The notes beneath the pieces are model-generated. The model saw only the letters and a program-made list of their open reading frames with translations, had not been told where the DNA came from and made no database searches. 64,000 nucleotides of DNA from a phage. Position 1 is the stretch's first letter; the number at the start of each line of letters is the position of its first letter. Of this stretch, positions 8,623-61,484 are shown piece after piece. The stretch is taken from assembly GCA_025611195.1 (NCBI GenBank), contig GCA_025611195.1_4718.1. One strand, given 5' to 3'. The position numbers and the translations under genes were made by a program.

Positions 8623-8657
8623 CCTTCTCCCCAACCCGATGAGGGAAGGGGAGAAGG
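8623..8657. terminator. GC-rich palindromic hairpin between convergent genes
   Basis: ccttctcccc-aaccc-gatga-ggg-aa-ggggagaagg; A9 run just upstream (U-tract for minus-strand transcripts); TATG at 8660-8663. Confidence 0.55.
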
Positions 8658-8673
8658 GCTATGCGCTATTTAA

Positions 8674-8952
8674 TTATTTTCGAGAGGTTAACCACGATTC
8701 AATTGCGGTGAGGTTGCATTTCAGTTCACGCCAACTAGGGTGTGGTGGGATCACAGCACCTTTGTCGATTACGGTTAGCTGAACCTGGTACTTCTGTTGC
8801 ATACGCGCTACCGTATCGCTTACCGAGAGGAAAAGCTGGTAACGTTCGTACGCTGTCAGTTCGCGGTCCTGATAAACCGCGTAGGTGGCTAACGTAACTT
8901 CGCGTAAGTCCTTTGCGTCTACAGAGACGGTGATGAGTTTATATTGACTCAT
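8674..8952 (-). CDS. hypothetical small protein (92 aa)
   Basis: AAGGAAACC SD before ATG at 8952; flanked by hairpins 8623-8657 and 8972-8994. Confidence 0.6.
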   Translation of the reverse strand: MSQYKLITVSVDAKDLREVTLATYAVYQDRELTAYERYQLFLSVSDTVARMQQKYQVQLTVIDKGAVIPPHPSWRELKCNLTAIESWLTSRK

Positions 8953-8971
8953 ACGGTTTCCTTATCGACTA

Positions 8972-8994
8972 GGGTATTGCAAACTACAATACCC
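8972..8994. terminator. hairpin between 9015-11573 and 8674-8952
   Basis: gggtattg-caaacta-caataccc, 8-bp perfect stem. Confidence 0.4.
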
Positions 8995-9014
8995 GTCATC
9001 GGATGATAACTTAA

Positions 9015-11573
9015 TTACTGCTCTTCACGTTCCAACAGATACTCGGAAGCGGTAATACCGTTTACCGTACGTACTGCTTTCAGACGAGTATCATCACTCA
9101 GAATCACGGTAACAGACTGCAGACCTTTTACTTTGGTCTCGAAGGTCTTGAATACCTGATCCAGCATACGAGCAATGCTTGGGTTGGTTGCAGCCGATGC
9201 GTGAGTGTAACCATTCTGGTTCAGCTTCAGAATCTTGGCGTTGGTTGGTACACGAAGAACAACATGCGGACGCATTGCGAACACACTGTGGTTAAACCAG
9301 TAAGCATCGTTACTATCTTCGTCGGTGACGATGTCTGGATTAACACGCATGTCTTCGGTAGCCGCGTCTGCCAAACGACGTTCGATTTCGTCAGCATCCA
9401 GAGAGCCGTCCTTCTCCAGTTCTGCACGATACTCACTCATGGCAACCAGATGACGTTCACGATTCGCTGCAGATTTTTCGTGAGCGGCTTTCAGGTAGTC
9501 ATGCATGTTGTACAGTTCTGCTATGGAAAGACGAATGTTCCACTGACCTTCGCCGTCACGATTGCAGTAGAGACACTTCAGCATGTTGACCCAGGTGTAG
9601 TAGCAATTGGAGAACTCATCTTCAATGAACTTTTGATCCATTTTAAGATCGTGAATCAGCCAACCGGACAGTTCTCCGATATCATCAACGAAGCTAGAGA
9701 TGGTGGTTTCAGAGAAGTTCTTCGGTACGATACGTTTGATCAGCTTGTTAACGTCTTTGGTCATGCTATCGTTCAGGAAATGCCAAATACGCAGAGGGAT
9801 GACGTCACGATACTGTTGCATGATCTGACGATAAGCTTTGATATCGTCGCTACGACCTTTATCAATAGACAACGCGTCCAGGAATTCATGGATAGCATCC
9901 AGCTCTTTGTCGGTATAGGTTCCCAGATAGGAATTGACCGTGGCAAGGAATGCTAATGCGTCGTTTTGGTTGACGTCAGTGTTGGTCTGCTGAATGATCG
10001 CTACTGCAGCTTTGGTTTCAGCATCCTCAACGCTTGACGCTGCGATCGCGTCGGTAACAGTAAACAGTTTCATTTCGCGCTGTTCGCCGACAACGATCGG
10101 TTCACGTTGAATCGGTTTGTTAAGACTAACGCGAACAACTTCTGCTTGCGCGATACGATCCAGTTTTACCATTTCCTGCTCTGCCATACGACGAGCGGTT
10201 GGATCTGATTCAAGTTCGATGTATTCCACTTCTTCCTCCGTGAGGGATGTAATGTCAACAATGGTTTCATGAAGAATTCCGTTTTCGTCGATACGTGCTC
10301 GACGAGCGAAGTGTCTGAAGTCATACAACGTTGGCCAGCGACAATTCGGCGCGTAGTCTTTGGCCTTCAAACGCATCTGCATAAATTCTTCATGTTGAAC
10401 AACACGACCGTAACGCTTAGCATCTTCGGTCGCATCAATTGGATTAACGGTCTTTGTTACCGTAGCGGAACGAGCCGTACGAATGGGTTCCGGTTTAGTC
10501 TGCACAGGTTCAGGTTGAACGGATTTCTGTTGTCCGGCCTTAACATGCCATTCGGGTTCTTCGTACCGTTCAGCAAATTGCTCGGCTGCTGCAAAGATAT
10601 CATTGATGCCACCAATATCTCCTTCTGGGTTCGTCGAATATACCCGTGGTTGCGGTGCCTCATAACGCGGCGCTGCGGTAGCAGGTGCGTCATTAACGAT
10701 AGGATCGTCATCACCAACATCGTACAAACGGTTGAACGCACAATCCTTCGAATCGATATACGATGGAGCTTGTGGTTGGATAACCGTCGGTCGAGGCTGT
10801 GCGCCGTATCCCGGCATTGTTGGAGCCATACCACGCATAACTGCCGGGTTAGGTTGGTATTGTGGTTGTGGGTAGGTTCCACCATACGTGGGATATGCGG
10901 GCTGTTGCGGTTGACCGTACCCACCGCCAACCATCGCATTTGCTTGCGGCCCACGGTAAGTCATCCCCAGTTGCATTACCTGCTGCTTCAGACCACGGGA
11001 CTTCTGCGCTATTTGCGCTAGACTCCCACTTTTATTTAGCTGCGTGTACTTATTCGCGGCTTCCGGGTTAATGCGCGATAATTCAATCGCACGATAATAT
11101 TCCGGGTATTGATTGGCTTCAAAGAGCCAGGTTACGAGGTGATACAGCGCAACTGTGCTCACAGCAGCAGAGACGATCTGGTCGTTGGACGCATTCTGCG
11201 GCATCGGGTTGATGTAAGAGAATACGTTCCAACAACAGTCTTCAACAAGCGATTCCATCATCATATCGTTATTGGTGTAACGTGCGACGAACTCGGTTTG
11301 TATTTTATCCTGTTGGGCGAAGTCTTTCAGGACATTGAAGACGGCTTGACGGATTTTGACGATCGTCGCTTCTTGGGTGATGAAGTTATAGTTCTGCTGA
11401 TATGATGGTTGTTGGTACTGTGGTTGTTGATAGGTGTTATTCGGGTATGCGCCGTACGGTGGTTGCTGGTACTGTTGCTGGCGAACCTGCTCAGCCGCAT
11501 AATTAATCGTGCTCGCATAAGGGTTTTCGCTGTAGCCCATTTGCTGATACATGTTGTTACTGCCATTATACAT
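9015..11573 (-). CDS. hypothetical protein (852 aa) with Gln/Tyr/Pro-rich low-complexity segments
   Basis: AAGGA SD before ATG 11573; N-terminal ~64 aa and an internal ~58 aa stretch (GGGYGQPQQPAYPTYGGTYPQPQYQP...) are Q/Y/P/G-rich. Confidence 0.8.
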   Translation of the reverse strand: MYNGSNNMYQQMGYSENPYASTINYAAEQVRQQQYQQPPYGAYPNNTYQQPQYQQPSYQQNYNFITQEATIVKIRQAVFNVLKDFAQQDKIQTEFVARYTNNDMMMESLVEDCCWNVFSYINPMPQNASNDQIVSAAVSTVALYHLVTWLFEANQYPEYYRAIELSRINPEAANKYTQLNKSGSLAQIAQKSRGLKQQVMQLGMTYRGPQANAMVGGGYGQPQQPAYPTYGGTYPQPQYQPNPAVMRGMAPTMPGYGAQPRPTVIQPQAPSYIDSKDCAFNRLYDVGDDDPIVNDAPATAAPRYEAPQPRVYSTNPEGDIGGINDIFAAAEQFAERYEEPEWHVKAGQQKSVQPEPVQTKPEPIRTARSATVTKTVNPIDATEDAKRYGRVVQHEEFMQMRLKAKDYAPNCRWPTLYDFRHFARRARIDENGILHETIVDITSLTEEEVEYIELESDPTARRMAEQEMVKLDRIAQAEVVRVSLNKPIQREPIVVGEQREMKLFTVTDAIAASSVEDAETKAAVAIIQQTNTDVNQNDALAFLATVNSYLGTYTDKELDAIHEFLDALSIDKGRSDDIKAYRQIMQQYRDVIPLRIWHFLNDSMTKDVNKLIKRIVPKNFSETTISSFVDDIGELSGWLIHDLKMDQKFIEDEFSNCYYTWVNMLKCLYCNRDGEGQWNIRLSIAELYNMHDYLKAAHEKSAANRERHLVAMSEYRAELEKDGSLDADEIERRLADAATEDMRVNPDIVTDEDSNDAYWFNHSVFAMRPHVVLRVPTNAKILKLNQNGYTHASAATNPSIARMLDQVFKTFETKVKGLQSVTVILSDDTRLKAVRTVNGITASEYLLEREEQ
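10754..10930 (-). other. Gln/Tyr/Pro/Gly-rich low-complexity coding segment
   Basis: Encodes GGGYGQPQQPAYPTYGGTYPQPQYQPNPAVMRGMAPTMPGYGAQPRPTVIQPQAPSY within 9015-11573; a similar segment occupies the N-terminal ~64 codons (about 11380-11573). Coordinates approximate. Confidence 0.6.
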
Positions 11574-11608
11574 TTCTTACGATCCTTTTTATTTTATTCG
11601 GTTATGTG

Positions 11609-15056: not shown

Positions 15057-15089
15057 TTTTTCTATTTATAACGATAAACGGCATAGAAA

Positions 15090-17590: not shown

Positions 17591-18211
17591 TCACAAACGA
17601 CGCAGGCGATAATGGATGGAACGATTGGTGCAATATGAACGGAACAGCGGCAATTGCGCAACTTCCGCAAGACTCATATTAATTCGCAGATGTTCAATAA
17701 CGGCGCTGTAGTTATCAGCAATACGATCGCTCAATAACTCTTCTGCCAATAAAGGAAGACAATCGACAACAATCGCGATCACATCCTCATTAACATAACG
17801 CACCCGAACACTCAACGGACGTTTGTCTGGGCTGTAAGTTGGATCCGCCAAACGACGTTCAATATCACGCGGATAGCTCGTCAGTAAATGGTAATAACCA
17901 TTGTCATAACGATTGATGTACTCACACAGCACATCAACATTCTTCTCCGACGGCAAACCTGTTTCGTCATAGTGATACGCAAACATACCACCAAGTAGGT
18001 TGTTAAGATGTACCGCAGGGTTCGCTTGTTCGTGTTCTTTCGTGATGAAGAAAGGCACGTTTTGGGCTGCGAAATAAAAACCTACATCATTGGGCGATAG
18101 TATGCCGAAAAGACTTTTAGGATCCAACAGCACCTGTAAGTCATCACGCGCATTTCGAATAATCGCGTGTTCTACCCAATTCGGAACGACGAGATATCGG
18201 AGTTCCTTCAT
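17591..18211 (-). CDS. hypothetical protein (206 aa)
   Basis: AGAGG SD before ATG 18211; divergent from the helicase gene. Confidence 0.7.
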   Translation of the reverse strand: MKELRYLVVPNWVEHAIIRNARDDLQVLLDPKSLFGILSPNDVGFYFAAQNVPFFITKEHEQANPAVHLNNLLGGMFAYHYDETGLPSEKNVDVLCEYINRYDNGYYHLLTSYPRDIERRLADPTYSPDKRPLSVRVRYVNEDVIAIVVDCLPLLAEELLSDRIADNYSAVIEHLRINMSLAEVAQLPLFRSYCTNRSIHYRLRRL

Positions 18212-18250
18212 TATGATTACCTCTTTGCAAGTATCGAAAGGATTGAGTCG

Positions 18251-19861
18251 ATGGACCCAAAACAGATAGCCATTAAGATTATTACGTTACTGTTTCGTAA
18301 CGCACAATTGAACCATCCCGATCCCAGTACGATCGACCATGTTAAATCCGTCTTAGATAAAGTCGAACCCCCGAAAAACCATCTCGCTACGGACATAGAT
18401 AGAGAGGTTTTCAACAACCTGATGAATACCATTCATTGGATGCTGGAACAACCGTTATCGGAACCTTTCGACAAACAACAGTTGTTACAAAGGATACGTT
18501 TAGATTGCCTTGAGCAAAGCAATCTTTACGAGATTCTTGCCGACGGACTGTACGATATCGAAGACGATGCTCATATCAGTAAGGTCTGTTCGCTTTATTA
18601 CAACGAATTGCGTAACCTGGTTACCCGCCGTCGTGTTTTCGAAACCTTTAGAAACACGTACATGGATATCAGTAACGGGCGACTTGGGGATAAAGAATTT
18701 TTCGATGCGATGGCGAATTTGAAATTATCGCTTGATAGTATCGAAATGGATACCGAAAATCCCGAAGAGATGTCGTGTATGGTTGATGGCTTTATTGCCG
18801 ACAGCGAAGACGATATCGAGAAAGTCGAACGCATGTTCGTCAAAGCGATGGAACGTAACAGTCCTGAAGGTGGGTTTGTAACCGGCTGGCAAGGTTTTAA
18901 TAAAATGTTGGGGTCGGTCGGCGTTTTACGTCGCGGTACCTTAGGACTGATTGGTGCAATGCAGCACCGAAATAAATCGGGTGTGTTGTTAAAACTGTTC
19001 ACGCATCTGGCATTGTACAATAAACCTCATTTCTTTTTTCCGGAGCGAGCAAAGAAAGCATTACTGATTCATTTGTCAACAGAAAACGAAGTAGAAGAAA
19101 ACACGCTTCAGATATACAAGAACATGCGAGAACAGGAAACAGGCGAATATGTCGATATTCGTAAGATTGACCCTCGCGAGGCATCACGTTATGTGTTGAA
19201 GGTGTTCAACGATGCGGGTTTCTCTGTTTGTATGCGCCGTGTTGACGGGATGAGTTACAAACAACTCGCTAATCTCATCGACCATTTCGAACGCATGGGT
19301 TATGAGGTCATGGCGTTGTTCATTGACTATCTGAAAATGTTCTCATCGGAAGGGCTGGATAGAAATGGACCGACCGGCGCATGGCTACAAGAACTCTTCA
19401 ACAAAGTCCGTAACCTCTGCAGTGTTAAACGTATTTTAGGTATGACCGTACACCAGCTGTCATCCGACGCGAAGATGCGCGCACGTGATGGTAACGACGA
19501 AGAGTTTGTTGACCAGGTCGCAGGCTTAAGTTACTGGGATGGTTGTAAAGGGATTGACCGTGAGATCGATCTTGAAGTGATTGTTGATATCGTTAAGGAA
19601 CCGGGTAAACGTCAAAGCTGGCAAGTCTTTGCATTAGGGAAGGACCGTCAACCGGATAACGGTTCAACAAAACCTGAGGATAAACATTTCACAATGCCAT
19701 TCCAAACCATCGGGATGCTTCCTGATGATTACGGTAAGAAAGCAGTATACTGCCGTAAGGTTGGTGGACAACCGGTCTCCGAGGGAGGTAAAGGTCCGTG
19801 GAACAAATTCGATGAAAATGCAGCACCGAGTAATGAATTACAATTTGATTTAGAATTTTAA
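18251..19861 (+). CDS. DnaB-family (RecA-fold) replicative helicase homolog with atypical Walker A
   Basis: AAAGGA SD before ATG 18251 (track ORF starts 18167 and overlaps the divergent gene). Motifs: MALFIDYLKMF (Walker B-like), MTVHQLSSDAK (DnaB QLNR-like), GKDRQPDNG; P-loop position reads GAMQHRNKSG rather than GxxxxGK(S/T). Confidence 0.7.
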   Translation: MDPKQIAIKIITLLFRNAQLNHPDPSTIDHVKSVLDKVEPPKNHLATDIDREVFNNLMNTIHWMLEQPLSEPFDKQQLLQRIRLDCLEQSNLYEILADGLYDIEDDAHISKVCSLYYNELRNLVTRRRVFETFRNTYMDISNGRLGDKEFFDAMANLKLSLDSIEMDTENPEEMSCMVDGFIADSEDDIEKVERMFVKAMERNSPEGGFVTGWQGFNKMLGSVGVLRRGTLGLIGAMQHRNKSGVLLKLFTHLALYNKPHFFFPERAKKALLIHLSTENEVEENTLQIYKNMREQETGEYVDIRKIDPREASRYVLKVFNDAGFSVCMRRVDGMSYKQLANLIDHFERMGYEVMALFIDYLKMFSSEGLDRNGPTGAWLQELFNKVRNLCSVKRILGMTVHQLSSDAKMRARDGNDEEFVDQVAGLSYWDGCKGIDREIDLEVIVDIVKEPGKRQSWQVFALGKDRQPDNGSTKPEDKHFTMPFQTIGMLPDDYGKKAVYCRKVGGQPVSEGGKGPWNKFDENAAPSNELQFDLEF

Positions 19862-19887
19862 ACGCAAAAAAAAAAGATTGTACGGTT

Positions 19888-19934: not shown

Positions 19935-20261
19935 TTAACTTATCGTCATAAATTCGCTTGGTGAGAATTTCCAACCATTCTCATTGAGAAGTGTGTTGAG
20001 TTTCGCTGCGACGATAAGCCATGCATGCATAGCCGTTATGTCGTATTGGCGATTCACTCGACGTTGGTTTTCGATATTGATTTGCTCCTGTTCAGTGATG
20101 TTTGGATAGAGTGAGATAGCGCTGGGCTTACCCAACGCGCTAGTCATCACCGCAGTACATTCACTGATAATGTTGTTTAAGTGGTAGTTGTATACCGTTC
20201 CACGCATGACGCGATGACGGCATTCGATAATAGCGTCGTAAATGATTTCTCGAGTAATCAT
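19935..20261 (-). CDS. hypothetical small protein (108 aa)
   Basis: ORF between hairpin 19888-19919 and the next gene; weak SD. Confidence 0.55.
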   Translation of the reverse strand: MITREIIYDAIIECRHRVMRGTVYNYHLNNIISECTAVMTSALGKPSAISLYPNITEQEQINIENQRRVNRQYDITAMHAWLIVAAKLNTLLNENGWKFSPSEFMTIS

Positions 20262-23295: not shown

Positions 23296-24663
23296 TTAAA
23301 CGGTTGGACGAACGGTATTGTCTTTTTCTGGTGCGATCCATAACGTGACCGTACCATGGCATGTCCACTGTGGTTCACGTACAGAAGAACCCGCCATCGT
23401 TACAGCGCAATCGGTACGCATGATGACCCCATATGCTTCGCAGAGGTTGTTATCCTGCATCCACACAACTTTAGCGGGCATACCGGGATACAACAGATCC
23501 ATGTTTGCGTATTCCCACACCAACTGCATTGTTCTACCGCGTAATCCAGCAGTATTGCTTATTTCACGCCATCGGTTATCGGTTACGCGTCCCATCCCTT
23601 TCGCCACCTTCACGTTATCGCTACGCTCTTCAGTTACGTACTCGCTAACGTTTACGGTACGACTGATTATGGTATCGCCCCCCTTTGATAATGTCATCCC
23701 CTGACTCATCTGACTTGCCGAAACAAAACGCCCACCCGCATTACCTAACAACGAAGCCGCGTTATTGACGTCGCTTACCGACGCCCCTCTCGTACATGCA
23801 ATTTCCACGTATTTGTCGCGATTGATCCAGGTCTTGTCCATACCCGGAAACATATCGGCAGGATAGTTGTAAAAGATAGCTGTACGTCGACCGTCAGAGA
23901 AACGGGTTTCGTCGTATAAGGGGTAGATATACAGATACGGGGATTGATAATAACAACCGACATCTGCTGAATAAATACCAACCTGGTTCTGGATTTTATC
24001 TACGAGATCCATCGCATTGGTACCGTGTGGAAGAATAAGCAACTTGAATGGGTTGTCGTTATTCGGTGCAACGATATCCACACCCTGCATTTTGAATCCG
24101 GTGTCAGCTTCAACCGCAGAAAGTATCTTGCTGAATTCAAGGCGCAACACATCCAGCACTTTCGATCCAGTATAGTTCTCACCGGTTTCTGATTGCATGA
24201 AGCTTTCAAGAACAGGATCGAACAGTTGAAATTGAAGATCGACCATTTGTTCGTAGTCTTTCTTCGAAGAATCGGTTGCGGTACGTTCGTCGGTAGCAGA
24301 CATACGACTGTCTACGGTTGTTAAACAGACCGCCCGGTAGACATAAGCCTGTGCGGCATCGTCTACGGTTTGGCGTTGTCCGCGCATCAGGCTGTACGCC
24401 TGCACGATGATGCGCATTTTAAGTTGTTGTTGGTACGGTAGAATGTATTTTCCGTAACTGCCTGGTGGAAACTTTACAGAGATATAAAGTTCATCCCCTG
24501 CGTTACGTTCATAGTCTCGATACGTGTGGACTTGAGTCACTAAAGGAACAGACACCGTCATTGACGGCGTGATTAATTCCGCGGTGACTTTATACGCAAC
24601 AGCAACAGCTTCCTGCGCAAACGTACCGATATACCGTCCTAACGGCGTCTGTTTGTAATCCAT
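23296..24663 (-). CDS. hypothetical protein (455 aa), first visible gene of a six-gene operon, possibly structural
   Basis: Long ORF; 3-nt gap to the next gene; no catalytic motif. Confidence 0.8.
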   Translation of the reverse strand: MDYKQTPLGRYIGTFAQEAVAVAYKVTAELITPSMTVSVPLVTQVHTYRDYERNAGDELYISVKFPPGSYGKYILPYQQQLKMRIIVQAYSLMRGQRQTVDDAAQAYVYRAVCLTTVDSRMSATDERTATDSSKKDYEQMVDLQFQLFDPVLESFMQSETGENYTGSKVLDVLRLEFSKILSAVEADTGFKMQGVDIVAPNNDNPFKLLILPHGTNAMDLVDKIQNQVGIYSADVGCYYQSPYLYIYPLYDETRFSDGRRTAIFYNYPADMFPGMDKTWINRDKYVEIACTRGASVSDVNNAASLLGNAGGRFVSASQMSQGMTLSKGGDTIISRTVNVSEYVTEERSDNVKVAKGMGRVTDNRWREISNTAGLRGRTMQLVWEYANMDLLYPGMPAKVVWMQDNNLCEAYGVIMRTDCAVTMAGSSVREPQWTCHGTVTLWIAPEKDNTVRPTV

Positions 24664-42466: not shown

Positions 42467-45460
42467 ATGAGCGTAACCAACAAAGATCTTGCTGAACAGC
42501 TCAATCGCTATATGCTTTCACCTATTGAGATGCAGGCTGTTGCAAGCGATATGATCCGTTTGGCTTCTGATGGTGAATTAACCCTGGTTGACCCCAGCTG
42601 TCCGTTTGTTTATCTGCTGGAGGTTGCAACGGCGACGGCTGCGAACCAGAACGCACGGGATGAGTCCCGTGTTCGCGAACTGTATCCAAAACTTGCAACG
42701 AACTGGAATCAGCTCTATCGTTGGATGTATGATGAGTCGTACGTCGGACGTTTCGCAATGCCGGGTAAAACGGAAATCATTTATTCGTTAGGGTATCAGG
42801 AAATCCTCGATCGCGCTGTAGAAATTCCAAACACCGCTTCCTCCGATGATTTAAGCCGTTCTTACAGCCGTAAGTTAGTGATACCACGTACGACGGCGTT
42901 TACGGTAGCCGGAATGGATTTCGGGTTGCATTATCCCATCGAAATCCAAGTGCAGGCGCACGACCAGATACGCGTTGTTTATAACACGGATAACATCAGC
43001 CCGTTGCAAACCTTGGAGAGTAACCAAGTTGAGTATGGGGTTGTTCGTGTAAAAGCGGGCAAAGTGTTGGTGATGCGTATCCCGCTGTTCCAGTTTAAAA
43101 CGCTGGTAAAAGATGTGCCGTTTAACAGCGTTCACGGGATGAACAGCAGCATTACCTTCGAAGATCAGTTTTACCATTGTCGTGCGTACATGTCGTCGGA
43201 TAACGATACCTGGACGGAGATAGCGACAACCCACAGTCAACAGATCTACGATCCGTTAACACCGACCATCGCGTTACAAGTAGAAGGGAACAAACTTAAC
43301 TGGCGTGTTCCTGAAATTTATTTGTCTCAAGGTACGATGGATAAAAGCACCATTCGACTTGAGGTGTTGACGACGAAAGGGAAAATCAGCGTCGACCCGT
43401 CTGATTACGACGTGACCGATTGGAAAGATAACTACATCGATTTGTCACCAAAAGCCGAACAGAAATACAGTGCGCCGCTAAGTGCGTTCAACATTAAAGG
43501 GATTTATAGTGAAGGGGCGTTGTCGGGCGGACGATCCGCATTAACGTTCGAGGAGCAACGTGAACGCGTTATGGCAGGCGTGAACAAAACCAAGGTACCG
43601 ATCACGGGAACACAGGTAGAGCTGGTGCTTCAAGATGCGGGTTATGGGATGGTAACCACTATCGACAACGTAACAAATCGTTCGTTCCTGGCAACCCGAG
43701 ATTTACCGCAATTGAGCGACAGCGTGCCGCAGGCCGGTTCGTTGATGGGGTCTTTCTATACGTCAGCCGCAGCATTGGTGAAAAGTAAGTTTGTCGCCGA
43801 TAACGGCGATCGTATCACGATTAAACCTGACTGCCTGTATCGTGACAGTAACGGAAGTATCGCGCTGTTGTCAGACGATGAAATTGATCGTATTAATGCA
43901 GGCGACTCCGATGCGAAGTTGAACGCAGTAAACAACGCCATGTTGTTTTACAGCCCGTTTCATTACGTGTTGGATGCGACAAGCGATTTCGACATTCATG
44001 CTTATTACCTGGATGCTCCTAAGATCGGCACACAAGCATTCCTCGACGCGAACGAGACAATCCCGTTAACCGCTATGGTGACCGGATACCGTCTGGACCG
44101 TATCGCTGAAGGATATCGTCTAAGCCTCATCGTCGAAGGTAACGACGCATGGAAAGCGCTCGACGATAAAAACGTGCATGTGCAACTGGGATTCAATCCG
44201 CGGGGTGAGGGTGATTACGCAACGATGTTAGCATCGCCTACAACCGATGATGAAGGTCGTCGTTTGTTCACCTTCGATATCACCACGAATTATGATTTTA
44301 CACGAATCCTGGCTGATGATTCCACAGCGTATGAACCGTATATCGCACTGACGTCCTTCTCGATGTATGAATCCACACCACGCGATTACTGGGCGTCATT
44401 ACAACAGTACCTGGAAATCTTCCATGTGGTGACGGATTACGCGCCGGAAGATGTCGACGGTATTTTACACAGCGCTTCCGATAATTACCTGGTTAAGAAA
44501 CTTACGCTTCAAAATGGGTATTGTTTCTACCGTGAACGTCTCACCGCAACCTTTGGTTATGATCTGGATGGTCTTTGGATGCGCTCTCGTACGGTAGCCT
44601 CGGAGATTACGTATAAACGTTACACCGAGAACATTCCGTGGGTGTATGAAGAAGATATTCCAGCGACGGATGAGACCGGTTCGGTTATCATTGAGCAAGG
44701 TGAAGACGGTACGTTGTCGGTTAAATACCTGCATCGTAAAGGTGACCCGAAATTAAACAGTGATGGAAGCCAAGCCTATCGTTATCTGAAAGGCGACATC
44801 ATGAAAGATAATTACGGTAATCCGATTCCTGTCGATGAACGTGAAGTTCTGCGTAACCTGGACATGTTCTTTATCGATGCGTCGTATCTGCTAGCGAACG
44901 ATACTGACGTGATTGACTATCGTAATGCGATTCCTACGCAGCTTATCGAGTGGATCAAGAACGATATCATCACGTTCAGGAATTTCTGTTATGAGGAAAC
45001 GGAAATTTCACTGTATCCTAAACAATCGTTGGGGTATGTGGACGTTATTGTGGAGAACGGATTGGAAACGACGCTTCCTGCTGCCCTATCGTTTAACGTA
45101 ACGCTGTACTTACCGGCTAAGCAATACGCGGATTTGGATCTACGTCAAGTCCTTCAAGCGATGGTATCGAAAGTCATCAATAAATGCTTAACATCCCGTA
45201 CAGTGGCTAAAGCAGAAATGATCGCGATGATTCGTGAGGAAGGTGGCGACGACATCCTTAACGTTGAAATCGATGATTTTGGACCAGGTAAGAACCTCAG
45301 TGTTTATACCGCGAAGAACGACGGTGTTCGTTGTGCGGTGAAGAAAGAGCTTTATGTGAAAGCGGATGGTATCTTGTCCGTACGTGAAGCGATCGATGTA
45401 AGTTTTGTGAAACATGCACAAAGCAACAGTTCGGCATTAGCGCAAGGCCTTCGTGTCTAA
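42467..45460 (+). CDS. hypothetical large protein (997 aa), possibly structural
   Basis: Starts 4 nt after the previous stop; ends before hairpin 45482-45513. Confidence 0.8.
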   Translation: MSVTNKDLAEQLNRYMLSPIEMQAVASDMIRLASDGELTLVDPSCPFVYLLEVATATAANQNARDESRVRELYPKLATNWNQLYRWMYDESYVGRFAMPGKTEIIYSLGYQEILDRAVEIPNTASSDDLSRSYSRKLVIPRTTAFTVAGMDFGLHYPIEIQVQAHDQIRVVYNTDNISPLQTLESNQVEYGVVRVKAGKVLVMRIPLFQFKTLVKDVPFNSVHGMNSSITFEDQFYHCRAYMSSDNDTWTEIATTHSQQIYDPLTPTIALQVEGNKLNWRVPEIYLSQGTMDKSTIRLEVLTTKGKISVDPSDYDVTDWKDNYIDLSPKAEQKYSAPLSAFNIKGIYSEGALSGGRSALTFEEQRERVMAGVNKTKVPITGTQVELVLQDAGYGMVTTIDNVTNRSFLATRDLPQLSDSVPQAGSLMGSFYTSAAALVKSKFVADNGDRITIKPDCLYRDSNGSIALLSDDEIDRINAGDSDAKLNAVNNAMLFYSPFHYVLDATSDFDIHAYYLDAPKIGTQAFLDANETIPLTAMVTGYRLDRIAEGYRLSLIVEGNDAWKALDDKNVHVQLGFNPRGEGDYATMLASPTTDDEGRRLFTFDITTNYDFTRILADDSTAYEPYIALTSFSMYESTPRDYWASLQQYLEIFHVVTDYAPEDVDGILHSASDNYLVKKLTLQNGYCFYRERLTATFGYDLDGLWMRSRTVASEITYKRYTENIPWVYEEDIPATDETGSVIIEQGEDGTLSVKYLHRKGDPKLNSDGSQAYRYLKGDIMKDNYGNPIPVDEREVLRNLDMFFIDASYLLANDTDVIDYRNAIPTQLIEWIKNDIITFRNFCYEETEISLYPKQSLGYVDVIVENGLETTLPAALSFNVTLYLPAKQYADLDLRQVLQAMVSKVINKCLTSRTVAKAEMIAMIREEGGDDILNVEIDDFGPGKNLSVYTAKNDGVRCAVKKELYVKADGILSVREAIDVSFVKHAQSNSSALAQGLRV

Positions 45461-45522: not shown

Positions 45523-48315
45523 TTATCTTACGTTGCTGCTATTCTGCTGTTCGCTGAACCAACAGTACACCTTGAGATCGGTACCGTATTTCAATGCGAT
45601 ATACGCATTCAGTGCGGCACAGAACAAAGACGCGAATGCCCATATCAGCGAAGGATCAACATCTTCCGTTACTACCGGGGGAGTATTATCCGGTTCCCAT
45701 GATGGAGAACTGTCCATGAACGTCGTGTACCATTCCCGCCGTTGTTCTTCAGTGGTAAAGTCGCTATGAGGTTCCAACGCTTCTTTTGCCAGACGTCGAT
45801 ATTCGAACATATGCGTTGCTAAAGCCGATGAGTTACCAGATTCGCCTTCATAGTTCGGATCCACCGCATAACAGAGTTCTGTGGAATTTAACAAAGCAAT
45901 CGCTTGTATGATGCTGTCGGCAGTGCCTGCACTATAGAGCTCGATAGACCGCGAAAGCTTTTCACAGAACGTATTTAACGCGGCAGGATTGGACACCTGA
46001 AGGTCGAGGCCTAATGTCCACGGATAGTTACTGAACACGCCCGTAAACCGCGGCATAACACCCAACAGATGTTGTCCGATTACGGCACGGTTATAAACAG
46101 CCCGGTTATAGACTTGAAACGCAGCCTCCAAGGCTTGGTTATAATGACGACGAAGTTCATCACGCGAGTTGCGGAATCTGTTTGCCGCAAGACTTGTGGC
46201 TGCGACGCTACAAACATCGTAATCGGTGGACGAGAGCACAGTTTCGTTAAGATCGAACGCTTCCTGTTTCAACGTTCCGCTAACAGCCGCTGCTTCGCTG
46301 TTTGCTTTATCGACAACTGTACTCAAAGCGTTGATGTAACGCTTAGCTCGGACCTCCAACCATTGTGCGATGCCGAGAATATCCACCGCAGCTTTAGCAA
46401 GGTCGCGTGCGTTCACGATTTCGTTCTTCAACGCACCTAAACCTTTATTCTCAGGCGATGAGGCTTGTTGACGAATCATGCTGTTCAACATGGTAAGCAG
46501 ATTATCCAACTCGTGTCCGCTGACCTTGTTACGCGCATCGGTAACTGGCCCTTGCAGGAATTTACGGCAACCATCGTTGTATCGAATCAGTTTATCCACA
46601 TCGATCGATTCGTTCGTGGATTCCTTGAACTGATCCTTCAATTCTTCACGGTAGTCATGGATTTCACTTGCGAGATTATCGATAGTGATACCATCGTGTC
46701 CAAGAAGAACTTTATTGAAGTTACCTTTCTCGAATGCAAGAGCAAGACCTTCACGAATCTTAGCGAGTTTATCCTGATCGAGTTCACGACCGTTCGATAG
46801 CTCTTTCACTTCCGAGCTGATTAATGCCGAAACGTTACCCAGATTGTCGGTAACCCCTTTGAACGCTCCCGACCAAATCGTTCCTGCTTCAGCGTATTTC
46901 GCAATGGTCTGAATACCGACGGTGTGCAGCGATGCTAAACGTTTCTTCGTGCCTTCGGTAAGCAATGCGTCTTTAGCTCGCGTAAGTTGACTGTTATTAG
47001 CTTCCGCCTGCTGAATCGCTGCTTTCGCACTTCCATTACGCCAGCTCTTAACCAGCCAATCAACCAAACGTTTTAGGATATTGACGGTGTATTCCATTGT
47101 CCGCCGTAACGTTTCCCACGCGCTTTCTGCGGTATAGATGCCGTACCCTTCCATCTTCGTTGGGTCAAAGAAACCTTCCTGCACGAGATCGGTACGTGTG
47201 TAGCCATCAGCAGCTTCTACTTCCGCCTGGGTTTTATCCCAGAAGTCGTCACTCTTTGCAGCAATCGCTGTATCTTTAACGTCCAGGATGATCTGACCAA
47301 CCGTTTGTGCAAACAGCAAGGCCGCACGTACCGATTGTGCGAACATCCGCTGATATTTGATTCGAACGCATTGCATCTGGGTTAGCAGATTCAGTTGTGC
47401 GATCCCATCCAAGGTGCTATCCTGAGCAAGCCCTTCGGCTTTAGCGATAACCTGTTTTACACGTTCAGCGACATCACCGTACTGCTGGCAAACATCCCGC
47501 AGAATACGTACCGCGAAGACCCCGGTACCGATATAGTTCAATAGGTCTTTTAACGACCATTCGGTCGGACAATCGGTCGGCGCAATAGGGAGTAAGCAAC
47601 CATCACCGTCCATGAATCTCTCTAATGCGTTAATATCCTGATTTTCTACGCTCATGGGGATATCGACATCAGCCGCTTGCAGATCCAGCATCTGTTGTAG
47701 GATGTTGGTATCGGCTTGTACAAGCGTCGCAAGCGCTTGGCTGTGTGCGATTATTGGTAACGCAGGCGACCATACTGCAGCAAGCTTGTCGACGTGACGT
47801 TGAATGGCATACCCCATATCCTCGATCACATCGGGATGCTCGATAACCCCCTGAAGCGTTTGATGTAGCTCACCGAGTTGCTGAGACAGATCGACCATCA
47901 TGGTGTTGAAGGTTTCGCCATCCTCTTTGTGGTTGTCCAGACGCTCGAGTTCATGTCGAAGCAATGTAACGAGCTGTCCGTTGCCTTCTTGCTTCAGCTT
48001 GCTTTCCATTAACGTAATGGCTTTATCGACGATCTGACACGCTTCACGAAAACCGGTTGTGGAAGGAAGCTCTGTCCATAACGCCAGCGGTTTACCGTCA
48101 AGGGCTTCCGGCATCGATAACGAAAGCATAGACAGTTGTTGACGTGATACTTGCTGTTCACGGTGTAATGTTTCTTTTAACGCCAGGAGATCGTCAAGAA
48201 ACGCGCCGTTAAGGGTGGTCGTACGCGGTGTTGAATTAATACCGTCAGTTAACGATTCAAGCACCAGGAGACCGTTATCAGCTGAAGAGAGTCCCGCGGC
48301 AAGATATTTGTTCAT
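45523..48315 (-). CDS. large inner-body-like family member (930 aa)
   Basis: GGAGTG SD before ATG 48315; contains DLVQEGFFDP...WETLRRTMEYTVNILKRLVDWLV matching the family helix. Confidence 0.75.
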   Translation of the reverse strand: MNKYLAAGLSSADNGLLVLESLTDGINSTPRTTTLNGAFLDDLLALKETLHREQQVSRQQLSMLSLSMPEALDGKPLALWTELPSTTGFREACQIVDKAITLMESKLKQEGNGQLVTLLRHELERLDNHKEDGETFNTMMVDLSQQLGELHQTLQGVIEHPDVIEDMGYAIQRHVDKLAAVWSPALPIIAHSQALATLVQADTNILQQMLDLQAADVDIPMSVENQDINALERFMDGDGCLLPIAPTDCPTEWSLKDLLNYIGTGVFAVRILRDVCQQYGDVAERVKQVIAKAEGLAQDSTLDGIAQLNLLTQMQCVRIKYQRMFAQSVRAALLFAQTVGQIILDVKDTAIAAKSDDFWDKTQAEVEAADGYTRTDLVQEGFFDPTKMEGYGIYTAESAWETLRRTMEYTVNILKRLVDWLVKSWRNGSAKAAIQQAEANNSQLTRAKDALLTEGTKKRLASLHTVGIQTIAKYAEAGTIWSGAFKGVTDNLGNVSALISSEVKELSNGRELDQDKLAKIREGLALAFEKGNFNKVLLGHDGITIDNLASEIHDYREELKDQFKESTNESIDVDKLIRYNDGCRKFLQGPVTDARNKVSGHELDNLLTMLNSMIRQQASSPENKGLGALKNEIVNARDLAKAAVDILGIAQWLEVRAKRYINALSTVVDKANSEAAAVSGTLKQEAFDLNETVLSSTDYDVCSVAATSLAANRFRNSRDELRRHYNQALEAAFQVYNRAVYNRAVIGQHLLGVMPRFTGVFSNYPWTLGLDLQVSNPAALNTFCEKLSRSIELYSAGTADSIIQAIALLNSTELCYAVDPNYEGESGNSSALATHMFEYRRLAKEALEPHSDFTTEEQRREWYTTFMDSSPSWEPDNTPPVVTEDVDPSLIWAFASLFCAALNAYIALKYGTDLKVYCWFSEQQNSSNVR

Positions 48316-53186: not shown

Positions 53187-54938
53187 ATGAGCGAACAAGA
53201 ACGAAAACCTAAGAAGAAACTGCTCGGTATTCAATGTCGACACATCAGCTATAACGAAGCGAACGATGGTAGTAAGAACGACCTCATGATCGCAAAAGAG
53301 ATCATGTTCTTCGATGATAATACGCAAGCGACGAACCTTCGCTTCTTCGAGAATTACAAACGTCCGTTTTGGGTGACGGTAGAGAGTAAACGCAAGAACA
53401 AATATAAAAAGGAAAGCGAGAAGCTCTCGCACGTGCGACGCTACGATGTCCGTCAAAGTGAGCTGGTTGAAAAGATCAGCTCGGTGCTTTATAAAAGACG
53501 TGCTGACGATAACACCCGTTTACAGCAGCTTGCACGGAGTCCCTACCTCTATGGCACGGACGTTAGCGCCAGCTGTTATTTAAAAACCCAATACAATACA
53601 AAATGGCCGGAATACGTCGATAAATTACCCGCGTCTATCGCATGTTTCGATATCGAAACCGATGTTGTCCACGGACACGGTAAGATCGTCTGTATGTCTA
53701 TTACAATGGGATACAATGCGATCCTTTGCTATACCAAGGACTTCGTTGGTCATATTCCGAATGCGATTGAGAAAACCCATGAGAAGATTCGATATTACCT
53801 GGCCGAACGTCTGAACACCAAAGAAGATCCTCATGCGTTCGAAAAATATCAGTACGATGTTCGAATCGTAGAAAGCCCAGCACAAGCGGTCATCCAATGC
53901 ATGCAGAAGGTTCACGAATGGCAGCCGGATTATCTCCTTGGCTGGAATATCGCGTTCGATATTCCGCGTATGCTCCAGGCACTGAACGAGGAAGGGTATC
54001 GTCCCGAGGATGTTTTCTCCGATCCTCGTGTACCACCTAAGTATCGTATTGCTCGCTGGGTACCACCGAAGACCGACAAGGTATCTGCTTCAGGTCGTAA
54101 AACCAACCTTACCCTTGAGCAAACCTGGCCGATGTTTTATACGATGGCCACGTATCAGGTTATGGATGCGATGTGTGGTTATAAGTTCGTTCGTTTAGGA
54201 AGACCGGATGAGGGGAGATACTCACTCGATGCGGTGTTAGAGCGAAATAAATGTCATACGAAATTAAAAGCAATTCCTGGTACAGAGGGGTTCACGGAGC
54301 TTGCGTGGCACGAAGAGATGCAAACGAACCATCAAATCGACTACGGCGTATATAACCTTTGGGATAACCAGGGTATCGAGGCGTTGGACCAGAAAACAAA
54401 AGACTATTCGATGACCATCCCTATTCGTTTGGCAGCATCGGATTTGAAAGATTTCAGTTCTAACCCTAAACGTATCTGCGATAAACTTTTCTTCGTTTAT
54501 CTTAACCGTGGGGAAGTCATGGGATGCACCGCCGACGACATGACCCAGGAAGAAGATAAGTGGGTTATCTCACGAACCGGACATATCGTCACATTGCCAT
54601 GCGATCTCATGGCGGACAACGGCATCCATCTCTTCTGGGATATGCCGAACCTGAGAAGTTATATCCGTCTATTCGTTGCAGACCTCGACATTAGCAGTTC
54701 ATACCCGAATGGGCAGATCCTGTTGAATCTATCCAGAGCATGTGTTTTTCGTGAGCTCTCACGCATTGAAGGCGTCTCTGACTATCAGTTCAGGAAGTTA
54801 GGTATCAACTTTATTACCGGAGGTAAAACGAACGCTGTAGACTTCTGTAGAATCGTTTATAAAGCACCATCGATGTTCGAACTCTTAGAACATTTCGATG
54901 CAACGCGTCCAAAAGGGGAAGCGCGGACCATCGAATGA
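53187..54938 (+). CDS. family-B DNA polymerase, N-terminal fragment (3'-5' exonuclease domain plus motif A)
   Basis: Exo I ACFDIETD, Exo II GWNIAFDIP, Exo III YGVYNLWD, motif A DLDISSSYPN; ORF stops ~75 aa later with no motif B (KxxxNSxYG) or motif C (YGDTDS). Confidence 0.75.
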   Translation: MSEQERKPKKKLLGIQCRHISYNEANDGSKNDLMIAKEIMFFDDNTQATNLRFFENYKRPFWVTVESKRKNKYKKESEKLSHVRRYDVRQSELVEKISSVLYKRRADDNTRLQQLARSPYLYGTDVSASCYLKTQYNTKWPEYVDKLPASIACFDIETDVVHGHGKIVCMSITMGYNAILCYTKDFVGHIPNAIEKTHEKIRYYLAERLNTKEDPHAFEKYQYDVRIVESPAQAVIQCMQKVHEWQPDYLLGWNIAFDIPRMLQALNEEGYRPEDVFSDPRVPPKYRIARWVPPKTDKVSASGRKTNLTLEQTWPMFYTMATYQVMDAMCGYKFVRLGRPDEGRYSLDAVLERNKCHTKLKAIPGTEGFTELAWHEEMQTNHQIDYGVYNLWDNQGIEALDQKTKDYSMTIPIRLAASDLKDFSSNPKRICDKLFFVYLNRGEVMGCTADDMTQEEDKWVISRTGHIVTLPCDLMADNGIHLFWDMPNLRSYIRLFVADLDISSSYPNGQILLNLSRACVFRELSRIEGVSDYQFRKLGINFITGGKTNAVDFCRIVYKAPSMFELLEHFDATRPKGEARTIE

Positions 54939-55017: not shown

Positions 55018-55035
55018 TGGAAGTTTTATGTGTTT

Positions 55036-55485
55036 TTAATTATTGTTGATGGGGTTATCGTCCGGCTTATATTCGATGCCGTAGGCGACGTAACGGTCTG
55101 TCGTATGGACGACAAGCGAGATGGGGAAATCATAATGCGTGGTTTTGTCTCGGACGAGCTGAGTAAAGAGATCCATATAACGTATTAAGTCTTCACTGGT
55201 GTAATCAGAAGGGAAGAAGACGTCGATGGTTATTGAATCTTCATAGAGGCGTATAACCAACTTATCCAGAAGGTCGGCATATTGGTTAGCCGGGGTGACG
55301 TCCAGCTCACAGATATCACGATCTCCTTCGTCTCGTGATACCCACATCATGGTATCCTGTAATGAGGTTTCAAGGATCTCGAAAATGCATTTTGCTGTAA
55401 GTTTTAGTTTATTTGTTACGTCATGGTTAGGTGAATAATGGTCACGGATGTTTTTCACTGCGTCTTTGATAGAGAAAGTCATCAT
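55036..55485 (-). CDS. small paralog family member 1 (149 aa)
   Basis: C-terminal DFPISLVVHTTDRYVAYGIEYKPDDN matches the family FP(I/L)xL...(E/H)YxPD signature. Confidence 0.7.
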   Translation of the reverse strand: MMTFSIKDAVKNIRDHYSPNHDVTNKLKLTAKCIFEILETSLQDTMMWVSRDEGDRDICELDVTPANQYADLLDKLVIRLYEDSITIDVFFPSDYTSEDLIRYMDLFTQLVRDKTTHYDFPISLVVHTTDRYVAYGIEYKPDDNPINNN

Positions 55486-55495
55486 TGATGCTCCT

Positions 55496-56005: not shown

Positions 56006-56009
56006 TTCT

Positions 56010-56462: not shown

Positions 56463-56492
56463 TGTTTCTTTTCCTGTGTAGTCGGTATACAA

Positions 56493-56522
56493 CCCTTCCC
56501 CGGCCTGATGGCTAGGGAAGGG
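56493..56522. terminator. GC-rich hairpin inside the small-paralog operon
   Basis: cccttccc-cggcc-tgat-ggcta-gggaaggg; TATG 56525-56528. Confidence 0.5.
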
Positions 56523-56536
56523 GCTATGCTACGTTG

Positions 56537-56935: not shown

Positions 56936-56971
56936 CTTTTTAATCCCTAGTTTGTTATTGATCACGTATAT

Positions 56972-57367: not shown

Positions 57368-57399
57368 TTTTTATCCTTAATGTTATCGATTTGGAAATA

Positions 57400-58167: not shown

Positions 58168-58169
58168 GA

Positions 58170-58628
58170 TTACCCCTTAGTTTCTTCTTCGTCTGGAGAG
58201 TACTCCATTGTGTAGAATTCATAACCATCGGAAAACTTGAGTGTTAATGTAATAGGGAAATCGCACGGCATAGCTGATTTCGTAAACGCGTTATTAGCAA
58301 CATCAGCCAACCGACGTATAGCATCAGTCCCGCTGACGCTGAACGGTAGTTGTATGTTGATAAGGATGCGGTGCTTGTAAACATGGAAAACAACGGTACT
58401 GTCAAGATAAACGCTATGGAACGGTATTGTTGGGATGCGTTCCACGATGGTAAAATACGTCCCGTCATTATCGCTATGTCCCATCGACCAAATATCGGAT
58501 TTGCGTAGATTTTGTTTGAGGGATTCGATACTTCGAGTGACGGTATCAACAACAGGCGTGACGTAAGTGTCTTTATGCGAGTCGAAAAGTTCGTTGACGT
58601 TAGATTCGAATGAATACATTGTTGCCAT
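58170..58628 (-). CDS. small paralog family member 7 (152 aa)
   Basis: QLPFSVSGTDAIRRLADVANNAF...CDFPITLTLKFSDGYEFYTMEYSPDEE; start ATG overlaps upstream stop (TAATG). Confidence 0.75.
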   Translation of the reverse strand: MATMYSFESNVNELFDSHKDTYVTPVVDTVTRSIESLKQNLRKSDIWSMGHSDNDGTYFTIVERIPTIPFHSVYLDSTVVFHVYKHRILINIQLPFSVSGTDAIRRLADVANNAFTKSAMPCDFPITLTLKFSDGYEFYTMEYSPDEEETKG

Positions 58629-59089
58629 TATTCTACCTCTTTCTTCATCTTCATCGGAACAGAGAGTGCTGTTATCTCTGTTCCATTATCCGGTTCATAC
58701 TCCAATGTAACGAGATTGCAGCCATCCGATAATTCATAATCGATCGCTAGGGGGAACGAGACACCGTGCGACTTTATGCATTTACCAAATGTCTCGTTGG
58801 CTGTATACATTAGAAGTTGCTTTGCGGCAAGCCCGTTTACGCTGAAAGGTAATCGTGCTGTCGCAGCGATACGATTATTGTAAACTCTGATATCGGTGAT
58901 ATCTACAATCGTAGCATTGCCGTGTTGTGTCGTTGGAACGGATAGGCTGTAGAAGTAAGGTTCGGAGTCGGAATCGGGCTCGTTAAATAATTCCCAGCAC
59001 CCGTCCTCCTGCAATCTTACTTCGAGTATTTCAAAGCTTTTAATTATCGATTCTACCAGCTGCTCACCGTAAGAATCCCATGTCGTCAT
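58628..59089 (-). CDS. small paralog family member 8 (about 153 aa)
   Basis: Track start GTG 59107; AAGGTG SD then ATG 59089. RLPFSVNGLAAKQLL...VSFPLAIDYELSDGCNLVTLEYEPDNG. Confidence 0.7.
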   Translation of the reverse strand: MTTWDSYGEQLVESIIKSFEILEVRLQEDGCWELFNEPDSDSEPYFYSLSVPTTQHGNATIVDITDIRVYNNRIAATARLPFSVNGLAAKQLLMYTANETFGKCIKSHGVSFPLAIDYELSDGCNLVTLEYEPDNGTEITALSVPMKMKKEVE

Positions 59090-59159
59090 TTTTAACACCT
59101 TCGACACCTTTTAACCGATGCGTGCCCCACCTAACAAGGGACACGATATCGTTGATTAA

Positions 59160-59654
59160 TTACTCTTCTGTGTTTTCATTGTCAGGATCGTAATGGAATT
59201 CGAACAGCCCTGAACCGTCATGTCCGTTGATTGTTAGTATAACGGGCATATCGAATCCTCGGACGCGCGAATGAAAACACTGTGCTAATTTTAGTTTGGC
59301 GTATGCCGCTATTTCATTGACGGCAATACACGACTCACCTGTTATACTCAGTATAACGTCGATACTAACAACGTTGTCGTGCAACGCAAAACGCCAGCGA
59401 TCGATACGATTATTATCTTTAGCAGCTGTCTCGTTTACGAGATAGACTTTATCGTCAACTGACAAAGCAGGGCTCCAGCAACGTTCGTTTATTAAATTCG
59501 CCTGGAGTTTTAGTATCGTCTGATCAATAATATCCCAACACGCAACCAGTGTGGTGTCGGGCACTGAACAGAGAAGGGCGAGCACTTTATCCTTTATTTT
59601 AAGTGCTTCCACAGAGCGTCCGCAAATACCATGCATTTCAACCTTCTTATTCAT
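59160..59654 (-). CDS. small paralog family member 9 (about 164 aa)
   Basis: Track start GTG 59660; AGAGGTG SD then ATG 59654. ...FDMPVILTINGHDGSGLFEFHYDPDNE. Confidence 0.7.
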   Translation of the reverse strand: MNKKVEMHGICGRSVEALKIKDKVLALLCSVPDTTLVACWDIIDQTILKLQANLINERCWSPALSVDDKVYLVNETAAKDNNRIDRWRFALHDNVVSIDVILSITGESCIAVNEIAAYAKLKLAQCFHSRVRGFDMPVILTINGHDGSGLFEFHYDPDNENTEE

Positions 59655-60867: not shown

Positions 60868-60895
60868 GGTGATAAGATATCTTGCTCTTATCACC
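60868..60895 (-). promoter_or_regulatory. hairpin overlapping the 3' end of motif copy C
   Basis: ggtgataaga-tatcttgc-tcttatcacc, 10-bp stem; stem differs from copy A by paired substitutions. Confidence 0.4.
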
Positions 60896-60918
60896 TTAGT
60901 AATATAGTCGTGAAATAG
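60889..60918 (-). promoter_or_regulatory. conserved promoter-like motif, copy C (contains TATATTAC on minus strand)
   Basis: Minus strand reads AGTCTATTTCACGACTATATTACTAAGGTGATAA, about 29 of 33 positions identical to copy A; upstream of ATG 60823. Confidence 0.5.
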
Positions 60919-60951
60919 ACTGCGTTAACAAGAAATAAAAACAGCATAAAA

Positions 60952-60989
60952 CCTCCTCCCCCATCCTTCAAGAGGACGGTGGGAAGAGG
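60952..60989. terminator. imperfect GC-rich hairpin
   Basis: cctcctccc-ccatcc-ttcaaga-ggacgg-t-gggaagagg with mismatches; minus-strand side followed by UUUUAUG and U-rich sequence. Confidence 0.4.
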
Positions 60990-60997
60990 GAGAGAGA

Positions 60998-61399
60998 TTA
61001 AATGTCGTGGACGGCAATGCCGTTTAACCAGCAATACAGCTTAACGCGACACGGATATCGCTTCGTTGCAGCAGCCATTTCATCGCGTAAACGCTGGTAG
61101 ATTTCATCCTGGTGTTCACGTTCAATGGGGTAATCAGCCCAACATTCGATCATGACGTCACCATTAGTCAAAATCGTCGTACGCATCCTGTCCTGGACAC
61201 GACGATCTTTCCCAGCATTAGGGAAATACATTCCTTCAGTACGAATAAGGTCGCCACAGGGCATGACTAACCATTCGTTCGTTTTGCTGGTATTCTTATA
61301 ATCCAATACAGCTTGCATTGCGGTGTCAACGCTAAAAGAAACATAATTCCAAACGGGGGTCCAACGATAGATTGCAGGTTGTTCAAGTGTTTCGTTCAT
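60998..61399 (-). CDS. hypothetical small protein (133 aa)
   Basis: AGGAAAAG SD before ATG 61399; TATG 49 nt upstream; bounded by hairpins on both sides. Confidence 0.65.
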   Translation of the reverse strand: MNETLEQPAIYRWTPVWNYVSFSVDTAMQAVLDYKNTSKTNEWLVMPCGDLIRTEGMYFPNAGKDRRVQDRMRTTILTNGDVMIECWADYPIEREHQDEIYQRLRDEMAAATKRYPCRVKLYCWLNGIAVHDI

Positions 61400-61456
61400 G
61401 AGGCGCTTTTCCTATTTTTTATTTTCTGCACAGGATAAATTCAACGGCATAAAGCC

Positions 61457-61484
61457 CTTCCCTGCCCTTATATGGGGCGGGAAG
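61457..61484. terminator. GC-rich hairpin with bulges
   Basis: cttccctgccc-ttatat-ggggcgggaag; CATA 61448-61451 and TATG 61488-61491. Confidence 0.45.

Follow-up and report, generated by a model that had tools for sequence, protein, structure and literature searches.

Two-tier, often bidirectional hairpins at gene ends of a Goslar-type jumbo phage as a probable form of the conserved phiKZ terminator

In phage phiKZ, 133 termination regions were mapped by ONT-cappable-seq, and 61 of them are reported to share the motif 5'-BCCYCCCCHWWDGGGRRGGBYTTATKYYGT-3', a stem-loop followed by TTAT (Putzeys et al. 2024, PMC10914365). The same motif ('motif A') was described in 59 terminators of phage 201phi2-1, in which hairpins are elongated where a second motif co-occurs and longer stems terminate more strongly; all eight terminators tested in vivo terminated transcription, the motif of each being unspecified in the available text (PMC11512511). 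Here, a family of 13 intergenic GC-rich hairpins is described in a stretch of phage DNA of 64,000 nucleotides (nt) (GenBank assembly GCA_025611195.1, contig GCA_025611195.1_4718.1; hereafter the window). A 4-kb sample of the window was 95.5% identical to Escherichia phage vB_EcoM_Goslar (hereafter Goslar), and the whole window is collinear with Goslar 28.2-89.8 kb at 89-96% identity, with a few insertions and deletions. The window genes lie mostly on the minus strand and encode virion proteins, and the annotation of Goslar, itself a relative of phiKZ, includes several proteins with weak similarity to the beta/beta' subunits of RNA polymerase in related jumbo phages. The phiKZ-like jumbo phages that form a nucleus share a conserved intrinsic-type terminator, and the hairpins are very probably its version in the Goslar lineage, many of them bidirectional. 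The element is thus of a known kind, that of the phiKZ/201phi2-1 conserved terminator, and its distinctive feature is the two-tier, often bidirectional stem.

The hairpins were recovered by scanning for local folds and by searching for pyrimidine-only arms with a complementary purine-only partner; because of its internal loop, the family escaped a search for perfect stems of 8 bp or more. Twelve of them lie where a preliminary description of this DNA had placed them, with all the arm variants and the loops GTAA, GTCA, AACA, TTAC and GGAA listed there, and one more was found at 28564-28585 (Table 1). The count of at least twelve sites given in that description holds if variants are included (13 in all), while the exact two-tier form, Y9-10/AA/CCC/4-5 nt loop/GGG/AA/R9-10, is present at only six (8623, 19888, 23260, 34498, 37204, and 45482). 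Related hairpins in which the 5' arm is pyrimidine-rich and the 3' arm purine-rich but the inner part differs were found at 54986-55017, 56493-56522, 60952-60989, and 61453-61488. Overall, this arm composition is seen at 12 of the 13 sites, being inverted at 48331, and the added inner tier at six or seven. All 13 hairpins are situated between open reading frames (ORFs), 3-30 nt past a stop codon, and they occupy each of the four convergent junctions of the window. Their folding energies range from -18 to -28 kcal/mol, with z values of -3.8 to -6.3 against dinucleotide shuffles, and none of 200 shuffles folds as well.

The hairpins agree with the phiKZ motif at the level of both sequence and covariance model. 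The segment GGBYTTATKYYGT was found directly 3' of the hairpin, on the minus strand, without mismatches at 23249 (the tail of the 23260 site), 28555, 60941, and 61444 and with one mismatch at 37193. The full 29-nt phiKZ consensus has a sole match in the window at three or fewer mismatches, 28555-28583, with 0 expected by chance. Within 100 kb of phiKZ, a GC-rich hairpin precedes 15 of the 27 TTATKYYGT matches, most having pyrimidine-to-purine arms and several having CATAA or CATAG upstream. A covariance model (R1) was built only from five phiKZ motif copies found by pattern search and was run on the window without filters. Its top 13 matches were all hairpin-family sites (expectation value, E, from 7.6e-9 to 0.22); at each site, the strand with the better score has a gene end just upstream, and the inner tier of the two-tier copies is treated by R1 as a loop insertion. 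The same model gave 41 matches in Goslar at E up to 1. A hairpin of this kind stands at all 16 non-overlapping convergent junctions of Goslar (dG -16 to -32), and 10 of its 16 two-tier copies lie at convergent junctions. Rfam 15 gave no match in the whole window at the gathering threshold. The three 201phi2-1 termination sites quoted in the main text of its transcript study (179552, 183876, and 189851) are located 7-8 nt past the stem, at TTTATG/C, TTTATGA/, and TTATATG/, respectively, with the slash marking the site. A spacing of 7-8 nt between stem and 3' end is the classical intrinsic-termination distance.

The most diagnostic feature, overlooked in the preliminary description, is a conserved 9-nt tail directly 3' of the stem on the transcribed strand. 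Flank alignment gave TTTATGCTGT, TTATATGCCGT, TTTATGGCGT, TTATGCTCA, TTTCTATGCCGT, TTTTATGCTGT, and TTTATGCCGT, of the form TTATGCYGT or TTATG(C)YGT. Of the 26 flanks, 16 contain TATG in the 12 nt next to the stem vs 2.3% of random 12-mers (P ~2e-20), including the sense flank at seven of nine same-direction sites and five of eight flanks at convergent sites. The reverse complement of the tail (CATAA) is often present on the other side of the stem, which makes the whole element quasi-palindromic; many copies would work both ways because a perfect Watson-Crick stem is combined with this reverse-complement tail. The absence of an immediate U-tract, claimed earlier, was corroborated by a scan of 19000-38999 for canonical hairpins with a T-run (at least five T in 8 nt, 0-2 nt past the stem), which reported none of the family hairpins and a total of 23 candidates vs 21.7 by chance. 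The tail stands in place of the U-tract. The weak hybrid that it offers consists of UUAU only, and from the conserved G-YY-GT past it the tail would be a pause or release signal that depends on sequence, unlike a U-tract. Runs of A9 (8600-8608) and A10 (19869-19878) adjoin two convergent-junction hairpins; the corresponding minus-strand T-runs begin 12-14 nt past the stem, too far for a classical U-tract.

Features shared with the phiKZ/201phi2-1 terminator include the pyrimidine-rich 5' arm, the purine-rich 3' arm, the tetraloop or pentaloop, the tail TTATG-YY-GT right after the stem, the CATAA-like sequence upstream, and the position after stop codons and at convergent gene pairs. In contrast to phiKZ, whose published consensus is a single 7-8 bp stem, about half of the copies here are longer and two-tier: a 2x2 internal loop, AA/AA on one strand and UU/UU on the other, separates an outer helix of 9-10 bp from a CCC/GGG apical helix, and both this loop and the apical helix are invariant. 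Elongated forms, in which motif A is joined by motif B, are also present in 201phi2-1. The canonical Rho-independent terminator likewise has a GC-rich hairpin right after the gene, an expected 3' end 7-9 nt past the stem, and symmetric flanks in two-way use, whereas the elements described here lack the U-tract and carry UUAU followed by the conserved G-YY-GT. Hairpins of the form CCCCCC-AA-CCC-RRAA-GGG-AA-GGGGGG were seen in many unrelated IMG/VR contigs (at least seven among the matches listed); read on the opposite strand, these are Y6-UU-CCC-loop-GGG-UU-R6 followed by a T-rich run, so the same two-tier design appears in other phages with an ordinary U-tract.

Selection on the hairpins acts on their structure, as supported by covariation among copies, conservation between orthologues, and strand polarity. 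Covariation was calculated for 14 distinct copies of the two-tier form, taken from the window, Goslar, and two more contigs resembling Goslar; MAFFT alignments of the variable-length hairpins were out of register, and the models were built from equal-length sets instead. A viral-contig scan with the inner motif had yielded, among the matches listed, mostly chance hits and added only near-identical Goslar relatives (~90-96% identity). In the 14 copies, 98.2% of the cells pair, and five of 12 pairs have changed on both sides, with no one-sided change; none of 500 shuffles reaches the covariation score, and pairing falls to 64-70% when the partner is shifted by one column. The compensatory stem changes noted in the preliminary description were thus confirmed. 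All 12 hairpin sites compared with Goslar occupy orthologous positions with unique flanks, and the 8623 and 48331 hairpins are identical in the two phages. Differences between the window and Goslar affect two of 320 paired positions vs 92 of 1040 flank positions (P = 3.6e-9) and nine of 94 positions in loops and internal loops; inside the elements they lie mostly in the apical loops, e.g., GTCA/GTAA and AACA/GTAA.

Folding of both strands, proposed earlier as a check, showed that all 13 hairpins beat dinucleotide shuffles and that the plus- and minus-strand energies differ at some same-direction sites. Several hairpins between two minus-strand genes contain G-U pairs in the minus-strand RNA only, which become A-C mismatches on the other strand. 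The 15090 hairpin, a continuous 13-bp helix with two G-U pairs on the minus strand only, folds at -26.5 kcal/mol on the minus vs -17.4 on the plus strand (difference 9.1), and the 60952 hairpin at -27.4 vs -20.4 kcal/mol (difference 7.0); the 9-bp stem at 28564-28585 includes one G-U pair, again on the minus strand only. At convergent junctions the strands are nearly equal, 1-2.5 kcal/mol apart. Such strand-polar stability marks an element that works as RNA and is read the way its genes are transcribed, which at convergent junctions means both ways; it also explains why two-tier copies never use G-U. Together with the covariation and the few changes in paired positions, the strand-specific G-U pairs bear out the earlier statement that structure, rather than a protein-binding sequence, is under selection.

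By analogy with the relatives, a GC-rich hairpin of high stability would form in the nascent RNA, pyrimidine-rich in its 5' arm and purine-rich in its 3' arm and directly followed by the conserved tail (Y)TTATG-YY-GT in the place of the U-tract, and the transcript would end about 7-8 nt past the stem, inside the tail. Copies between same-direction genes would be tuned to the transcribed strand. RNA 3' ends probably form at these hairpins, as they do in the relatives, and the enzymes stopped would be the phage's own multisubunit RNA polymerases, Goslar-type phages being presumably independent of host RNA polymerase, as is phiKZ. Sigma-70-type promoter-like sites are depleted in window 19000-38999 (11 vs 26 +/- 5.5 in shuffles), as would fit a phage that makes no use of the host enzyme. 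The suggestion in the preliminary description that the hairpins may be terminators for the phage RNA polymerase is thereby supported through homology with phiKZ. Several points weigh against the terminator reading. The invariant AA/AA internal loop and the inner stem are absent from the published consensus, and the tail is lacking at 48331 or on the sense (minus) strand of 56493. The in vivo assays of 201phi2-1 terminators were carried out in uninfected host cells, presumably with the host polymerase and not the phage enzymes (PMC11512511). In the relatives, a mapped 3' end may arise either by termination or by trimming as far as a protective hairpin, and no transcript map for Goslar or the present phage was found in the literature searched. 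A paper on RNA binding by ChmC likewise contained no Goslar RNA map or motif.

The tail may have a further role, as TATG is also the consensus of phiKZ late promoters, with G as +1; every single substitution in it is reported to strongly reduce transcription by the non-virion RNA polymerase in vitro (PMC4666361), and the beta-like subunit gp123 binds TATG on the non-template strand (PMC12809450). Two related proposals build on this identity, and both are rather doubtful: the sites could be coupled stop-and-restart modules, where the upstream transcript ends and the downstream one starts at the same G, or the beta-lobe of the sigma-less polymerase could read the non-template TATG as a promoter-like pause that is needed for termination and replaces the U-tract. 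Either would add to the terminator reading. The excess of TATG next to the stems over its background frequency speaks for such an overlap, as do the published 201phi2-1 3' ends, which fall at the G of the tail TATG, the +1 of phiKZ late promoters, or 1 nt past it. By analogy with 201phi2-1, the corresponding window positions are 23252, 28559, 37197, 60945, and 61448. Downstream starts measured at same-direction tailed sites lie ~45-120 nt beyond TATG. The motif positions GG(-11/-10)...Y(-1)G(+1) fit the general pause consensus G-10 Y-1 G+1 (PMC6062546), provided that the 3' end is ~8 nt past the stem. Most hairpins here resemble phiKZ late promoters in having TATG at a fixed short distance; unlike these elements, the known promoter does not include a hairpin, the well-studied promoter P119L has none upstream, and the late promoters show, in the available text, no conservation beyond TATG (PMC4666361), whereas the terminator tail continues as YYGT. 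Moreover, TATG tails are found at convergent junctions without a following gene (8623 and 45482 on both strands, 19888 on the plus strand); as there is no gene to start, the tail is not there only as a promoter and belongs to the terminator first. The available text of the transcript-map and promoter papers holds no remark on an overlap of 3' ends with the late start G.

A role confined to RNA 3'-end stability or processing, which the preliminary description had named beside termination, is inseparable from it by sequence. Under that explanation, transcripts are read through and nucleases trim them back to the hairpin or cut beside it, leaving a protected end without true termination. The great stability of the hairpins (-18 to -28 kcal/mol) would suit such a role, pairing of the upstream CATAA with UUAUG of the tail can leave the end fully paired, and 3'-end mapping in the relatives cannot separate the two origins. 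Still, it is improbable that protection alone explains the family, since exonuclease protection needs no conserved downstream tail, the spacing in the relatives is that of classical intrinsic termination, and all eight 201phi2-1 terminators tested, the motif of each being unspecified in the available text, block a downstream reporter in vivo, which indicates termination or an equivalent block (PMC11512511). A DNA-level function, as binding sites of dimeric proteins, cruciforms, or mobile repeats of the repetitive extragenic palindromic (REP) or miniature inverted-repeat transposable element (MITE) type, is very unlikely indeed. The two-tier copies are perfect Watson-Crick palindromes without G-T pairs, and gene-content differences vs Goslar adjoin some of them; however, the strict pairing is explained by use of both strands, the compensated arm variation would not be tolerable in a sequence-specific binding site, the G-U pairs of same-direction copies turn into A-C mismatches on the opposite strand, the tail follows the direction of transcription, and the orthologous positions of all 12 sites compared give no sign of transposition. 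The purine 3' arm (GGAGG) was also considered as the ribosome-binding site of the next gene and rejected, as the distance to the start codons is ~45-120 nt and no gene lies downstream of convergent sites.

Table 1. Hairpins of the terminator-like family in the window and the sequences flanking them (R1 E, expectation value with the phiKZ covariance model)
Feature	Position	Strand	Remarks
Two-tier hairpin CCTTCTCCCC-AA-CCC-GATGA-GGG-AA-GGGGAGAAGG	8623-8657	both	Convergent junction (plus gene end 8591, minus gene end 8674); dG -26, z -5.6
CTATG beside the 8623 hairpin	8658-8666 on plus, 8611-8622 on minus	both	Follows the stem on each strand
Degenerate two-tier copy with tail TTTCTATGCCGT	Hairpin 15090-15119, tail 15078-15089	minus	Downstream of putative major head protein gene
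Two-tier hairpin	19888-19919; element to 19931	.	Convergent junction (18167..19861 plus, 19935..20261 minus); plus-strand tail TTATGACCG; T10 run on minus starts 12 nt past stem
Two-tier hairpin with tail GTTTATGCTGT	Hairpin 23260-23291, tail 23249-23259	minus	4-5 nt past stop of minus gene 23296..24663; R1 E 1.1e-5
Simple 9-bp hairpin AGCCCGCCC-TTCG-GGGTGGGCT with tail TTATGCTGT	Hairpin 28564-28585, tail 28555-28563	minus	Closest copy of phiKZ consensus; R1 E 7.6e-9
Two-tier hairpin with tail TTTATGGCGT	Hairpin 34498-34529, tail 34488-34497	minus	R1 E 1.5e-4
Two-tier hairpin with tail TTATATGCCGT	Hairpin 37204-37235, tail 37193-37203	minus	R1 E 8.6e-5
Two-tier hairpin	45482-45513; element 45470-45525	both	Convergent junction (42467..45460 plus, 45523..48315 minus); tails TTATGCTCA on minus, AATATGTTGT on plus; R1 E 2.3e-4 and 0.064, one per strand
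Purine-first variant CCTAGGGGAAGG-loop-CCTTCCCCTAGG	48331-48361	minus	Between two minus genes; without TATG tail; no phiKZ-model match
Hairpin CCCCTCCC-CC-TGGC-GGAA-GCCG-GA-GGGAGGGG	54986-55017; element to 55032	.	Convergent junction (53187..54938 plus, 55036..55485 minus); R1 E 0.15
TTTTATGTG at the 54986 site	6 nt downstream of hairpin	plus	Flank reading
Hairpin CCCTTCCC-...-GGGAAGGG	56493-56522; element to 56534	.	Between two minus genes; then GCTATGCTACG on plus, TTGTATACC on minus; R1 E 0.14
16-bp hairpin with tail TTTTATGCTGT	Hairpin 60952-60989, tail 60941-60951	minus	Two G-U pairs on minus only; R1 E 0.06
Hairpin with tail TTTATGCCGT	Hairpin 61454-61488, tail 61444-61453	minus	Mirror-image TATGACCGC on plus; R1 E 5e-3

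The GenBank record of Goslar carries a putative-terminator annotation on some of the hairpins only; the two-tier orthologues of window 23260, 34498, 37204, and 45482 are all without it. The annotated start codon of Goslar_00047 (63 aa; record 49770-49772) is the ATG of the terminator tail CTTATG, orthologous to window ~23250, and the conserved tail may have given rise to a spurious gene call here. The loop is AACA at both 34498 and 45482 in the window and GTAA at both Goslar orthologues (61018 and 71999); as this three-base change recurs at two sites, copies may have exchanged sequence, or certain loop forms may be preferred. In window 21360-23141, 90 bp of Goslar are replaced by 1.8 kb of DNA that holds two ORFs on the minus strand (326 and 257 aa) and lies directly downstream of the 23260 hairpin; Pfam gave no match in either of these strain-specific ORFs. 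Goslar has a 1.8-kb insertion at 81182-82967, including an annotated NUMOD1/HNH gene (81279-82469); the window lacks this insertion at 54679-54702, which lies ~0.3 kb upstream of the 54986 hairpin. From the positions of this replacement and this insertion, gene-content differences cluster at or near terminator-bounded junctions. The block of small minus-strand genes at 55030-59182 shows 89-92% identity to Goslar, with unalignable stretches, vs 94-96% for the rest of the window.

Taken as phiKZ-type terminators, the hairpins would provide a ready-made terminator and operon map for Goslar-type Escherichia coli jumbo phages, for which the literature searched contained no transcript map. As a compact part, their two-tier bidirectional form is a candidate insulator for engineering. 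The overlap of the tail with the TATG promoter core, if true, would give new insight into how sigma-less polymerases stop and start. The phiKZ terminator signal, a hairpin with TTATGYYGT, is conserved in phages of hosts as distant as Pseudomonas and E. coli, and this conservation points to recognition by the phage RNA polymerases rather than by host factors.

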